Assembly (NCBI GenBank): GCA_964016885.1
Contig: OZ024750.1
Span: forward strand, 45,880,001-45,944,000
Source of the DNA: Eledone cirrhosa
Lineage: Eukaryota
DNA: 64,000 nucleotides
Reading direction: 5' to 3'
The position numbers and the translations under genes are program-made. This document shows positions 1-58,164 of the stretch, piece after piece. Position 1 is the first letter of the stretch; each line of letters starts with the position of its first letter. Under the pieces are notes generated by a model that did not search any database, was not told the DNA's origin, and saw only the letters and a program-made list of their open reading frames with translations.

Positions 1-288
1 GTTAGAAATCATCAGGACTACATATCCAGTGCTTTTATCGAGAATGACACAGCTAGAGACTTATAGAATACTTAGCTGTGTACAGGAACTGGTTTGAAAG
101 AGCGGTTGCCGGTCCGGCAGAAATTAGAAATTGGAATAAATGCTCTGAAATAGCGATATATATGTGAATATAGACATAGAATATTCGAAAATATTCTGTA
201 TGTTTATAATAAACATTTTGAAGACCTAATCGCTATAGAATAGAATACGTCACGTATTACAATTAGATTCTCGATAAAAGCAAGGGAA

Positions 289-331
289 GTAATCTACGCG
301 TTTCATTCTTGTTAGAAATCATCAGGACTAC
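289..331 (-). ncRNA. Type I hammerhead ribozyme (310-bp unit, inverted arm)
   Basis: Reverse complement of the motif at 754-796. Confidence 0.88.
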
Positions 332-753
332 ATATCCAGTGCTTTTATCGAGAATGACACAGCTAGAGACTTATAGAATACTTAGCTGTGTACAGGAACT
401 GGTTTGAAAGAGCGGTTGCCGGTCCGGCAGAAATTAGAAATTGGAATAAATGCTCTGAAATAGCGATATATATGTGAATATAGACATAGAATATTCGAAA
501 ATATTCTGTATGTTTATAATAAACATTTTGAAGACCTAATAGCGATTAGGTCTTCAAAATGTTTATTATAAACATACAGAATATTTTCGAATATTCTATG
601 TCTATATTCACATATATATCGCTATTTCAGAGCATTTATTCCAATTTCTAATTTCTGCCGGACCGGCAACCGCTCTTTCAAACCAGTTCCTGTACACAGC
701 TAAGTATTCTATAAGTCTCTAGCTGTGTCATTCTCGATAAAAGCACTGGATAT

Positions 754-796
754 GTAGTCCTGATGATTTCTAACAAGAATGAAACGCGTAGATTAC
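754..796 (+). ncRNA. Type I hammerhead ribozyme, minimal, with palindromic stem III
   Basis: GTAGTC-CTGATGA-tTTCT aaca AGAAt-GAAA-CGCG-TA-GATTAC. Stem I is GTAGTC/GATTAC, extended by ATTCTCGATAAAAGCA (730-745) / TGCTTTTATCGAGAAT (803-818). Cleavage triplet GUA. Confidence 0.9.
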
Positions 797-1063
797 TTCC
801 CTTGCTTTTATCGAGAATCTAATTGTAATACGTGACGTATTCTATTCTATAGCGATTAGGTCTTCAAAATGTTTATTATAAACATACAGAATATTTTCGA
901 ATATTCTATGTCTATATTCACATATATATCGCTATTTCAGAGCATTTATTCCAATTTCTAATTTCTGCCGGACCGGCAACCGCTCTTTCAAACCAGTTCC
1001 TGTACACAGCTAAGTATTCTATAAGTCTCTAGCTGTGTCATTCTCGATAAAAGCACTGGATAT

Positions 1064-1106
1064 GTAGTCCTGATGATTTCTAACAAGAATGAAACGCGTA
1101 GATTAC
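1064..1106 (+). ncRNA. Type I hammerhead ribozyme (310-bp unit copy)
   Basis: Identical to 754-796, offset +310. Confidence 0.88.
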
Positions 1107-1373
1107 TTCCCTTGCTTTTATCGAGAATCTAATTGTAATACGTGACGTATTCTATTCTATAGCGATTAGGTCTTCAAAATGTTTATTATAAACATACAGA
1201 ATATTTTCGAATATTCTATGTCTATATTCACATATATATCGCTATTTCAGAGCATTTATTCCAATTTCTAATTTCTGCCGGACCGGCAACCGCTCTTTCA
1301 AACCAGTTCCTGTACACAGCTAAGTATTCTATAAGTCTCTAGCTGTGTCATTCTCGATAAAAGCACTGGATAT

Positions 1374-1416
1374 GTAGTCCTGATGATTTCTAACAAGAAT
1401 GAAACGCGTAGATTAC
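1374..1416 (+). ncRNA. Type I hammerhead ribozyme (310-bp unit copy)
   Basis: Identical to 754-796, offset +620. Confidence 0.88.
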
Positions 1417-1683
1417 TTCCCTTGCTTTTATCGAGAATCTAATTGTAATACGTGACGTATTCTATTCTATAGCGATTAGGTCTTCAAAATGTTTATTATA
1501 AACATACAGAATATTTTCGAATATTCTATGTCTATATTCACATATATATCGCTATTTCGGAGCATTTATTCCAATTTCTAATTTCTGCCGGACCGGCAAC
1601 CGCTCTTTCAAACCAGTTCCTGTACACAGCTAAGTATTCTATAAGTCTCTAGCTGTGTCATTCTCGATAAAAGCACTGGATAT

Positions 1684-1726
1684 GTAGTCCTGATGATTTC
1701 TAACAAGAATGAAACGCGTAGATTAC
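1684..1726 (+). ncRNA. Type I hammerhead ribozyme (310-bp unit copy)
   Basis: Identical to 754-796, offset +930. Confidence 0.88.
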
Positions 1727-1865
1727 TTCCCTTGCTTTTATCGAGAATCTAATTGTAATACGTGACGTATTCTATTCTATAGCGATTAGGTCTTCAAAAT
1801 GTTTATTATAAACATACAGAATATTTTCGAATATTCTATGTCTATATTCACATATATATATATAT

Positions 1866-2100
1866 GAAGGCGTGTGGCTGAGTGGTTAGAGAATTGGATT
1901 CGCAATCGTGAGGTTGTGAGTTCGATTCCTGGAACAGGCGATGCGTTATGTCCTTGAGCAAGACACTTTATTTCACGTTGCTCCTTCTACCTGGAGTTGC
2001 GACCGATAGATAGTATTAGCAATTGCAAAGACCAACGGAAACATAGTTCCCTCGGTCCGATTTGACGAAAGTCGATCGTTCCTATATAATCGTTCCTATA
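1866..2100 (+). mobile_element. tRNA-derived SINE, family A
   Basis: Pol III A box TGGCTGAGTGG and B box GTTCGATTCC. Homologous copies at 37090 and 45224. Flanked by (TA)n. Confidence 0.8.
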
Positions 2101-55011: not shown

Positions 55012-55164
55012 CATACATATATACATATATATATTTATAAATATATATATACATATATATATATATATATATATATATATATATATATATATATATATAT
55101 ATATATATATATATATATATATATATAGAAAGATTTGAATGGATACAGTTTAGTTGAAAGGAAT

Positions 55165-55281
55165 TTATTGACACGTGTTTCTATAACAGTTACATAACCT
55201 AAAACAGCTATCTACAAACTTTTAGTTATGCAGACATTCAATATTTCAATGTTATTATTTACTGTCATTTCATCAGAATAA
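55165..55281 (-). ncRNA. Type I hammerhead (inverted arm)
   Basis: Reverse complement of 55591-55707. Confidence 0.8.
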
Positions 55282-55590
55282 TATTACTGAGGACCTATTT
55301 AGTTTTTATAGAGAATATTAGGAGGGAGGGGTGAAGTTGTTAGAAGAATAGTTGAAGGAGTGGTTTTTCGATAGCATATCTTTACTATCTCTAATCCTTC
55401 TATAGATTTAGAAAAATAACCAATAATATATTCTATAAAAAATGTCAAAACAACAGATGGGAATCTAATTACTCACTGCCACCAAGAATTCTCACTGCTA
55501 TCGAAAAACCACTCCTTCAACCATTCTTCTAACAACTTCACCCCTCCCTCCTAATATTCTCTATAAAAACTAAATAGGTCCTCAGTAATA

Positions 55591-55707
55591 TTATTCTGAT
55601 GAAATGACAGTAAATAATAACATTGAAATATTGAATGTCTGCATAACTAAAAGTTTGTAGATAGCTGTTTTAGGTTATGTAACTGTTATAGAAACACGTG
55701 TCAATAA
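55591..55707 (+). ncRNA. Type I hammerhead with long stem II
   Basis: TTATT-CTGATGA-aATGACAGT...ACTGTTATa-GAAA-CACGTG-TC-AATAA. Canonical GUC triplet. Confidence 0.83.
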
Positions 55708-56004
55708 ATTCCTTTCAACTAAACTGTATCTATTCAAATCTTTCTATTTTTCTCCGGATTACTTTTGGAACTACAACTGGAACCGTCGAGCAAACTCTAC
55801 GTGAGCTGATAATCTACCGTGTGTAATATTTATATTACAACACAACGGAAAATACTGTATATATATATATATATATATATATATGTATATATATATAATA
55901 CTTTCCATATAATACATTCATACATACATATATATATATTTATATATAGCGGCGATGAATTAGTTTTGCGAGGTTTTTTATATGAAATCGTGTGTCGAAA
56001 CAGA

Positions 56005-56937
56005 TATTGTTATATTTGGGGAGGGTCATATTTGCGTAATATTGCCAGAATTAATAACAGAACACACTCACTGTTTGGTTGGTTTTCGCTTCTCGCTGTC
56101 TTTTATATATATATATCTGCGATCTAACTTACTCGGTCCTCAATGTTGCCATTGACTGACCGGCGGTCAAAAATAATACAGATACAATATAGACAAACAC
56201 ATATATATATAGTTTACATAATTTACATAAATCTTTCGTTGCACATCTGCAACATCGTCAGTGGTGTTATATTCATTGTTCCTCCTGTTGTGTTGTATGT
56301 CTACGCCATTTTTTTTGTTCAGTCTGTCTATATATTTATTTATTTATTTGCTTGTTTGTTTATCTTATTTTATTTTGTCTTCTTTGCGCATGCGTTTGCG
56401 TGTGTGTATAGTGTTATGTGTGATGTGTGACTAGTGTGTATAGTGTTGTGTCTGCTGGGTGACTAGTGTGTGTTTATGTGCTTGTGTATGTATTTATTTA
56501 TCTTATTTTATTTTATTTAATTTACTTATTTATTTATACTTCTCTTAGGTCAGTGTTGTTTGTTTGGGTGTTGTTGTTGTTCCACTCATTCTTTCTGTTT
56601 AGCTTTGGTCTTCTAATTTCTATTTCACTGGCCTCTCTGATTTGCCTATCTGCTGGGTCATTCCTATGTTTAGATATTATTCTAATTTCTATGTTGTCTA
56701 TGTTACCGTCATGTTGTTGTCTATAAACTATATATATATGTGTTTGTCTATATTGTATCTGTATTATTTTTGACCGCCGGTCAGTCAATGGCAACATTGA
56801 GGACCGAGTAAGTTAGATCGCAGATATATATATATAAAAGACAGCGAGAAGCGAAAACCAACCAAACAGTGAGTGTGTTCTGTTATTAATTCTGGCAATA
56901 TTACGCAAATATGACCCTCCCCAAATATAACAATATT
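56005..56937. mobile_element. Element with ~210-bp near-perfect inverted repeats around a ~500-bp spacer
   Basis: 56005-56216 is the reverse complement of 56724-56937. A related end fragment lies at 57594-57655. Confidence 0.7.
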
Positions 56938-57718
56938 TATATATATATATCCATATAATAATTTCCATATAATACGTTGATTTTCTTCAATTTCGTTTTA
57001 TCTCAATTTTCTTTGTTTCTCTCTCTCTCTCTCTCTCTCTCTCTCTCTCTCTCTCTCTCTCTCTCTCTCTCTCTCTCTCTCTCTCTCTCTCTCTCTCTCT
57101 CTCTCTCTTCTTAATTATATATATATATATATATATATATATATATATAAATATATATATATATTCTTATTTCTTATTGCTTATTTTTAAACATGATATA
57201 AGCGGCCCTTGTTCCACTCATAAATAAGTGTTAAAAATGGTGTTAGTCTTATTCGTTCTCTGATTATATGATGATAATATTGTTGTTAATAATGCTACCT
57301 TTCCCCTCTTGTGTTTGTAGATTGTATATATATACATATATATATATATATATATATAAACAAGATGGCGTAGGACAGAACAAAGGAGAGGCACAAAAAC
57401 AAACAAAATAATCCACAGTCACTGAAGAGGTCACAAAATGTGTGACGAACGAACTTTGACAATATATGAACAACCGTCCGGTTATGGAACCAACCAACCA
57501 ACCAACCGGAAATTTATAAATTCTTAAATTTATAAATTTAATTCATAATAAATTGGAGTGAATGCAACTGGCGCGTGTGTTTCTTATTGGCAACATGACC
57601 CTCCCAAAGCATAACAATATCGTTTTCAACACACGCTTTCACTTAAAGAATCTCTCTCTCTATATATATATATTAATTCAAAATATTAATAAATATAGAC
57701 ATTCATGTAATCAAATGT

Positions 57719-57782
57719 ATTTTATTATATATATTTCGGAGGTACTGTGCTGCTTCCTCAGTACATCCTCATCACATAAAAT
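57719..57782 (-). ncRNA. Degenerate type I hammerhead (core GTGATGA)
   Basis: Minus strand: ATTTTAT-GTGATGA-GGAtGTACTG..CAGTACcTCC-GAAA-TATATA-TA-ATAAAAT. Confidence 0.65.
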
Positions 57783-57904
57783 ATATAAATTGATGTATGA
57801 CATACCTCAACTTTGCTAATGACATACCTCAACTGAGCTCAAGTCTGCCAAGACTGGAATTGCACCATCAGCACAGTTGAGGTGTGTCATACATCAATTT
57901 ATAT

Positions 57905-57968
57905 ATTGTATCTGATAAGGACGTACTGAGGAAACAGCACAGTACCTCCGAAATATATATAATAAAAT
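57905..57968 (+). ncRNA. Degenerate type I hammerhead (core CTGATAA)
   Basis: ATTGTAT-CTGATAA-GGAcGTACTG..CAGTACcTCC-GAAA-TATATA-TA-ATAAAAT. The consensus of the two arms restores CTGATGA. Confidence 0.68.
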
Positions 57969-58164
57969 ATATTTGATTACATGAATGTCTATATTTATTA
58001 ATATTTTGAATTAATATTAATAACTCCAGGGAAATTTAATTGTTGAGTGCTACTAATCTATTGTAAAACTATATTTATTGATTAATCAATGAACCTTGTT
58101 TAACTTTTGGTGTATATTCTAAGCCAGGCTAGAGTAGAAAATGGACGTTAACCGATGATAATTA

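Follow-up and report, generated by a model that had tools for sequence, protein, structure and literature searches.

Paired fixed ends of two-armed insertions suggest that Penelope-like elements mobilise retrozymes in Eledone cirrhosa

A 64,000-nucleotide stretch of the Eledone cirrhosa genome (contig OZ024750.1, positions 45,880,001 to 45,944,000 of the forward strand; hereafter the window, numbered from its first letter) is AT-rich, dense in (TA)n and rich in predicted type I hammerhead ribozymes. We consider it probable that the window contains an intact Penelope-like element (PLE) of the Hydra clade, stubs of six other Hydra PLE families, and three retrozyme families, A, B and C, which PLE enzymes inserted in trans by priming at two sites. 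What ties these together is an insertion footprint found for every family in a search of the 3.0-Gb genome: copies show two fixed end peaks downstream of the predicted hammerhead cut, both landing in (TA)n, and nearly every head-to-head pair of arms has one end of each kind. As read from these patterns, the retrozymes are likely to be mobilised by PLEs, and stems near the arm ends, rather than the hammerhead, are the likely signal.

The first-pass annotation of this DNA had reported about 18 type I hammerheads, shared between an intact PLE and at least seven unrelated non-coding families. A structural scan for a CTGANGA core, stem II, GAAA, a palindromic stem III, UH and a paired stem I returned 16 sites, 15 of them intact and convincing and one (57761) a weak alternative fold. 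Allowing one core change added 7441 (CAGACGA) and 57775 on the minus strand, and direct reading added two more motifs with a single change, at 57912 and 20951, for a total of about 19 (15 intact plus 4), in agreement with the earlier count. Dinucleotide shuffles, 100 under each of two schemes, averaged 0.00 to 0.01 strict sites (maximum 1) and 0.12 to 0.14 relaxed sites (maximum 2), so that the comparison with shuffled sequence, which the annotation had named as a check, places the motif density far above chance. All eight stem III palindromes that it listed were found again. The motifs are real as sequence and fold; cleavage itself is predicted. An Rfam scan of the window gave no hammerhead among the 150 of 404 matches listed, these being simple-repeat microRNA matches.

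Intact predicted hammerheads in the strict scan (plus strand unless marked): 325 (minus), 760, 1070, 1380, 1690, 8005 (minus), 14227 (minus), 19458, 20171 (minus), 20615, 25411, 25508, 44329, 55276 (minus), 55596

The autonomous element comprises the following features.

7810 to 19790, minus strand: Hydra-clade PLE insertion, a 6.2-kb unit with a partial tandem and an inverted arm, in (TA)n
11298 to 13736, minus strand: intact open reading frame (ORF) for a reverse transcriptase (RT) with GIY-YIG endonuclease, 812 amino acids from Met by translation
17511 to 18991, minus strand: second ORF copy, 5'-truncated, from the partial tandem
14083 to 14237, minus strand: PLE hammerhead, core at 14227, with a 116-nt stem II, CGATCG stem III and a GUU triplet

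This is a young, intact Hydra-clade PLE; the annotation had called it intact. The 812-residue reading lies in an 830-codon open frame (11298-13790, minus strand), and at least 56 ORF copies exist genome-wide, all 56 of the candidates scored being open and 99-100% identical. A single ORF encodes the RT as well as a GIY-YIG endonuclease at its C terminus, with the motifs RWR, DKT, YRDD, CxCX5C (CNCRNKTNC), YIGAT, CxxC (CRLC..E) and CxH (N..CNH), and CCHH is absent. We assign it to the Hydra clade because these motifs match the definition in section 11 of PMC8557442, apart from RWR at the position where that clade has RWK. Pfam gave no match in the 812-residue protein; PF26215 is present in many of its homologues, one homologue being from an octopus. 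The insertion has its short end at 7810 (+61; offsets are from the predicted cut) and an 805-bp inverted arm at 18986-19790 with the long end (+198), and further hammerhead copies lie at 8005 (minus) and 19458 (plus). As described in PMC8557442, the clade, which includes Hydra-1_Obim of Octopus bimaculoides, shares the C-terminal GIY-YIG domain, DKT, the CxCX5C linker, CxxC and CxH, as well as a hammerhead within the pseudo-long terminal repeat (pLTR), the (TA)n target, partial tandems, an inverted 5' copy and a tail that is often at one end only. The window element differs from that description in its 6.2-kb unit with a long AT-rich 3' untranslated region (UTR), against units that tend to be below 3 kb; the tails here measure 80-137 nt against 30-40.

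The retrozyme families are represented in the window by four features.

1 to 1859, plus strand: family A array, 310-bp unit, 4.3 units on the plus strand, hammerheads at 325 (minus), 760, 1070, 1380 and 1690
7173 to 7694, plus strand: family B copy, a 441-bp tandem unit in other copies, with an inverted long-ended arm at 7173-7319
20051 to 20855, plus strand: family C insertion, 523-bp ORF-less unit, inverted short-ended arm at 20051-20178, long end at 20855, hammerheads at 20171 (minus) and 20615
2601 to 2685, minus strand: fragment of family C with the long end, 85 bp, in (TA)n

By DNA criteria A (310 bp), B (441 bp) and C (523 bp) are ORF-less tandem retrozymes. Their units are complete and arranged head to tail, each with one type I hammerhead, a G+C fraction of 0.34-0.38 and, as the longest ATG-initiated ORFs, 30, 45 and 37 amino acids, respectively. 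The inverted arm of the A array (1-546) extends about 190 bases beyond the start of the window; its right arm has the short end (+138) and its left arm the long end (+164). The B hammerhead at 7441 has the mutated core CAGACGA, which reads CTGACGA in most other copies shown. A pattern search found 4177 exact genomic matches to a 43-nt motif of A, and no ORF was found within the A arrays of 12 ten-kilobase regions. In these respects the three families resemble metazoan non-LTR retrozymes, described as ORF-less tandems of a few hundred bases with G+C below 45% (PMC7229834; bioRxiv 10.64898/2026.07.22.740005) and with one type I hammerhead per unit and a palindromic loop III (PMC7229834); family A also has U-U at the base of stem II, as in axolotl HHR_Amex2 (PMC7229834; bioRxiv 10.64898/2026.07.22.740005). 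They differ in having two arms, fixed short and long ends and (TA)n targets, which tie them to PLE machinery; the word 'inverted' is absent from PMC7229834.

Local alignment of the post-cleavage regions of A, B and C with every autonomous end detected no similarity (z below 3; at most 1.3 for C), whereas 21 of 57 Xenopus families have pLTR similarity (bioRxiv 10.64898/2026.07.22.740005). A PLE ORF beside C at 5 of 30 loci was considered as C's own, and proved in the two loci inspected to be a separate insertion behind a TA run. A-like sequence, followed as a lead to a partner ORF of A, led instead to an ORF-less sister, A2 (L414-L443, for example L418), a 320-bp tandem about 77% like A around the ends and tail region. 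Three DKG-type ORF ends lacked an A-, B- or C-like terminus. Two further ORF-less tandem hammerhead families were noted: one of about 466 bp with a tail resembling B (L195), and one of about 590 bp with a U3-A8 core and apparently Hydra-type stems (L372).

The remaining motifs belong to stubs.

24949 to 25139, plus strand: family F stub with its short end at +17 and its long end at +97, from the 3' end of a Hydra PLE, U3-A8 hammerhead
4006 to 4182 and 37346 to 37465: further family F copies
25340 to 25473, plus strand: family D1 stub with hammerhead 25411, from the 3' end of a Hydra PLE, stopping 18 nt past the predicted cut
25474 to 25597, plus strand: family D2 stub with hammerhead 25508, from the 3' end of a further Hydra PLE
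44291 to 44425, plus strand: family E stub with hammerhead 44329, from the 3' end of a Hydra PLE; the ORF of that PLE stops about 1.05 kb upstream
55128 to 55858, plus strand: two-armed family G stub, hammerheads 55276 (minus) and 55596, ends +42 and +155, Hydra PLE pLTR, 3.5-kb unit
57670 to 58117, plus strand: two-armed family H stub (hammerhead 57905), one core change per arm, ends +52 and +150, decayed Hydra PLE pLTR
20906 to 21140, plus strand: one-armed stub (20942), 72% like H, core mutated here (CTGATCA) and intact in other copies

Six families, D1, D2, E, F, G and H, are 3' ends of other ORF-bearing Hydra PLEs: their longer copies are contiguous with Hydra-type ORFs and lack short tandem spacing. 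For G, the ORF C-terminus lies 0.7-0.8 kb upstream on the same strand in 7 of 28 loci, and L291 has a full hammerhead-ORF-hammerhead tandem whose RT part is 51% identical to the window protein. No contiguous ORF was seen among the first 25 loci of E; when the family was queried with far upstream sequence, 22 of 30 loci had the order ORF, UTR, E. D1 has an ORF on the same strand within 1.5 kb in 1 of 30 loci and on the inverted arm in 6 of 30, and is contiguous with an ORF in L293, L296 and L297. The links for the others are an ORF 898 nt upstream of D2 at one locus (L302), ORF linkage of F in 3 of 30 loci, contiguous in L284, and a decayed Hydra ORF preceding H in both long copies (L364, L365) picked from 220 pattern matches.

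The picture of seven non-coding families thus gives way to six traced to ORF-bearing PLEs, which the annotation had anticipated in its caveat about remnants of other autonomous PLEs, and to three, A, B and C, that occur as short tandem units; the independent parasites number three instead of seven or more. Several of its groupings change as well. The pair 25403/25500, taken as one family, is two distinct abutting families; F, described as a half-hammerhead family, is half only because of 5' truncation, the motif being complete in longer copies, where the core reads TTGATAA (U3-A8); and the families at 25411, 25508, 44329 and 57905, called sequence-unrelated, are related downstream of the predicted cut, with z of 4.5-13 for most pairs among D1, D2, E and H. 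The U3-A8 change appears as covariation of the hammerhead core in F and in A2. Insertion into (TA)n with an inverted 5' arm, reported for most motifs, holds for A, B, C, the PLE, F, G and the 57905 family; E and 20942 are one-armed here.

The end peaks and the number of head-to-head pairs with one short and one long end were as follows for each family.

A: short end about +138, long end about +166; 8/8 pairs
B: +220 and +284; 15/16
C: +58 and +171; 21/22
D1: +51 and +145; 10/10
D2: +46 and +132; 9/9
E: +51 and +138; 1/1
F: +17 and +97; 45/45
G: +42 and +155; 7/7
H: +52 and +150; 30/30
PLE: +61 and +198; 6/6
End of a Neptune-type PLE: 12/12

Together, 164 of 166 pairs combine a short with a long end, and the long end lies on the left (83) about as often as on the right (81). 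Tails measure 26-33 nt in A and about 62 nt in B. Subsets free of selection gave 26/26 for F, 10/10 for H and 2/3 for C. Eight apparent long-long C pairs had been seen; seven were internal tandem units and disappeared with a full-unit reference. That PLE tails are one-sided is known qualitatively (PMC8557442, Fig. 2 legend; PMC3846280), and the near-strict one-of-each rule is not in the Hydra-clade description of PMC8557442. The footprint argues for trans-mobilisation, as the annotation had proposed, in the case of A, B and C, with their (TA)n sites, head-to-head arms and short and long ends; the proposal does not extend to the six other families.

The same data bear on the possibility that A, B and C are satellites, derived from PLE pLTRs and amplified as DNA by unequal crossover, with inverted heads produced by DNA repair. 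Tandem arrays do reach about 20 units, one array has a variant pattern with a 7-unit period, and a satellite origin is discussed in bioRxiv 10.64898/2026.07.22.740005. We nevertheless judge this very unlikely, given that 995 dispersed A long ends abut TA at one fixed point, that arrays stop at the same two points and follow the same one-of-each rule as autonomous PLEs, and that A, B and C resemble none of the autonomous ends compared in sequence.

The letters of the two arms point to one template. Where a short arm departs from the majority letter, the long arm of the same insertion has that letter too in 269 of 561 cases, compared with 1314 of 11433 for the long arms of other insertions (by projection on the reference, summed over eight families; variants were absent from the PLE). 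In two informative A arrays, both arms show a private variant (308-bp unit; one substitution). Shared private letters would also be explained if the second arm were a DNA-templated fold-back copy of the first complementary DNA (cDNA), the fixed ends being processing sites; self-priming has been proposed for rotifer PLEs (PMC3846280), and short H and F stubs have near-palindromic centres. Against such a copy, which we regard as unlikely, the arms of the window PLE begin at different places, one in the ORF and the other within the 3' UTR, so that the junction is not a hairpin; either arm of an A array can be far longer than the other (L369/L370, L371); and in the anole PLE both ends are RT start sites (PMC11167929).

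Two-site priming of one RNA, the reading that we prefer, raises the question of what marks the sites. On one reading of the annotation, one or a few (TA)n-targeting PLE proteins would recognise the hammerhead fold and in this way move at least seven unrelated RNAs that code for no protein, and indeed all families combine a type I hammerhead, a palindromic stem III and a common insertion footprint. This is nonetheless highly improbable. Six of the families are ends of their own ORF-bearing PLEs, the distance from predicted cut to short end varies from 17 to about 220 nt, and the Neptune-type end, without foldable stem I or III, obeys the same end rule (12/12). A2 has both arm ends in common with A and an unrelated U3-A8 hammerhead, which suggests modular ribozyme exchange; because the ends are shared despite the unrelated hammerheads, the arm ends follow the tail region and not the hammerhead. 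In vitro, moreover, purified PLE inserts without hammerhead cleavage, and hammerhead mutants still insert (PMC11167929).

A companion of the ends is a bulged stem, of consensus NCTC-helix..helix-NN-GAGN in Hydra PLEs, that starts 6-12 nt behind the arm end.

13944 to 14024, minus strand: PLE bulged stem 1, ACTC-TGTAT..ATACA-TT-GAGT, behind the short end by about 8 nt
13769 to 13886, minus strand: PLE bulged stem 2, GCTC-CTA..TAG-TT-GAGC, behind the long end by about 9 nt
20748 to 20771, plus strand: C bulged stem 1, GTTC-TGCA..TGCA-TA-GAAC, behind the short end
20342 to 20362, plus strand: C bulged stem 2, CTC-CAAA..TTTG-TT-GAG, at the long-end position in the preceding unit

Stem 1 is present in 6 of 7 Hydra references (the E reference fails and other E copies pass) and in four hammerhead clusters not used for its definition. 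C has a compensatory version of it (shuffle fraction 0.01), and the same scan found none in A, B or the Neptune end. Stem 2 passes the scan in the PLE (0.008 of shuffles) and in C (0.046). In G, E and H it can be seen with a helix of 2 bp; a scan behind the long end found none in A, A2, B or the Neptune end. A bulged-stem match in A at +52 was taken as chance, being far from the A ends and missing in A2. Among 77 Hydra-like metagenome loci, 16 have a hammerhead, and 3 of the 15 motifs with enough downstream sequence have GCTC..TT-GAGC at +50 to +54 (0.7 expected). Twin bulged stems do not appear in the Hydra-clade description of PMC8557442, and a literature search, lying outside most subscription journals and bioRxiv supplements, found no paper on these stems or on cephalopod retrozymes. 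Within loop 2 of the PLE, at 13775-13850 (minus strand), there is a candidate 5'-UTR intron (GTATGT..TTTAG), splicing of which would shorten the loop.

Since C has both stems, with compensatory changes and without sequence similarity, it probably rides a Hydra enzyme; A and B have neither, so that the window PLE is probably not their partner. The earlier proposal that a shared structure rather than a shared sequence is recognised thus fits C, with the difference that the structure would be the bulged stem behind the arm end and not the hammerhead. We tentatively suggest, at somewhat less than an even chance, that Hydra PLE proteins choose both RT start sites by the twin stems, one for each end of the break, and that C is a stem mimic that hijacks the enzyme.

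The proposed mechanism would run as follows. The PLE protein, probably as a dimer, would cut both strands of a (TA)n tract, and reverse transcription would start, for each DNA end, at a separate fixed internal site of the one RNA; the resulting pair of 5'-truncated copies would then be joined back to back. Heavy truncation would yield hammerhead-bearing stubs of 100-700 bp, and a tandem or circular retrozyme RNA would yield two arrays of units. In Hydra elements the start sites would lie about 6-12 nt before a bulged stem, the likely recognition signal, and C would be carried as a passenger by way of both stems. A and B would likely be served by another PLE enzyme; Neptune- and DKG-type elements are present in the genome. 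The hammerhead itself would most likely act as a dimer, through its palindromic stem III, to trim the tandem transcript, and would not be the recognition signal; cleavage as dimers and RNA circles are carried over by analogy from PMC4209133 and PMC7229834. In those systems minimal hammerheads need a dimer and have low in vitro activity (PMC4209133), and among Xenopus dimers just 1 of 9 cleaved (bioRxiv 10.64898/2026.07.22.740005).

Several points weigh against this account. Every step is read from DNA, and the sample was limited to the best 25-30 loci per family, some extended to 10 kb. The ORF link of D2 is a single locus, none is shown for the 20942 stub, and a partner element for A or B was not found. 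Pairs were counted only where both ends abutted a TA run, and queries that included one or both ends were used to choose some of the C, F and H loci; letters shared between arms could stem from gene conversion after insertion. As for the stems, G and E do not pass the strict scan for stem 2, 12 of the 15 metagenome hammerheads lack the stem, and the shuffle fractions are optimistic because the motif was defined after viewing the sequences and relaxed to admit C. Finally, the anole RT start is the same on top and bottom strands (PMC11167929), which does not itself predict one end of each kind.

That anole element, the Poseidon PLE of Anolis (PMC11167929), is a close parallel to the proposal, with two internal RT starts past the hammerhead that define the tail, cutting of both strands, an AT-rich target and a predicted dimer. 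It belongs to another clade, with a 30-40-nt tail and an AC-rich stem-loop, and the assay as reported is without one-of-each pairing or a passenger. The stubs resemble the minimal hammerheads of truncated PLEs described in PMC4209133, with many families per genome, mostly single motifs, opposite-strand pairs 100-700 bp apart, a palindromic helix III and the U3-A8 variant; they differ from that description in that stem II reaches 116 nt in the window and that the stubs are traced to ORF-bearing families.

All the elements belong to described classes, and PLEs have already been proposed in print as helpers that drive retrozyme mobilisation (PMC7229834; bioRxiv 10.64898/2026.07.22.740005). What goes beyond the literature compared is that retrozymes bear the PLE footprint, that the pairing rule is near-strict and that a sequence-unrelated passenger has the twin stems. 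These touch two open questions, how animal retrozymes move and why PLE insertions carry a one-sided tail, and both are testable by the published in vitro assay, since the genome offers a young intact PLE protein, sister ends and an ORF-less passenger that shares the stems. Were C such a stem mimic, the stems would give PLE insertion a defined cis signal that is portable, and would offer direct evidence for how animal retrozymes move.

Other repeats lie nearby. The Neptune-type end belongs to a two-armed stub of a young PLE at 55951-56936 that keeps the last 62 ORF codons and has a core and stem II at 56261 (minus strand) without a foldable stem I or III; an intact 1217-residue frame of this type occurs at L366, and Pfam gave no match in it. 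The end offsets of B (+217-222/+283) match those of this stub (+221/+283 from a notional cut site), but no sequence similarity was found. Another Neptune-type family, older than this one, has its 3' end at 57360-57654, where a degenerate hammerhead core lies at 57422; in 6 loci an ORF C-terminus is found about 185 nt upstream. A (TA)n-flanked stub at 35162-35405 (minus strand) has a Hydra-type bulged stem (ACTC-TACTC..-TC-GAGT), and other copies are two-armed palindromes (L437); the CTGATGA at 35229 lies in this stem and is not a hammerhead core. The inverted-repeat insertion at 25817-26049, in (TA)n and without a hammerhead, is probably another PLE-type stub, with 11 matches among the fetched loci, some two-armed (L042). 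The decayed fragments at 22626-23153, 48250-48699 and 54303-54789, with a CRLC zinc finger and a PD..D-type nuclease motif, are what we take to be the C-terminus of a non-LTR retrotransposon. The window also contains a family like short interspersed nuclear elements with an apparent B-box (1865-2088, 37089-37311, 45223-45432), another dispersed repeat of about 190 bp (at 5277-5602 and some ten further places) and, at 27710-30801, a minisatellite with 50 copies of a 62-bp unit.

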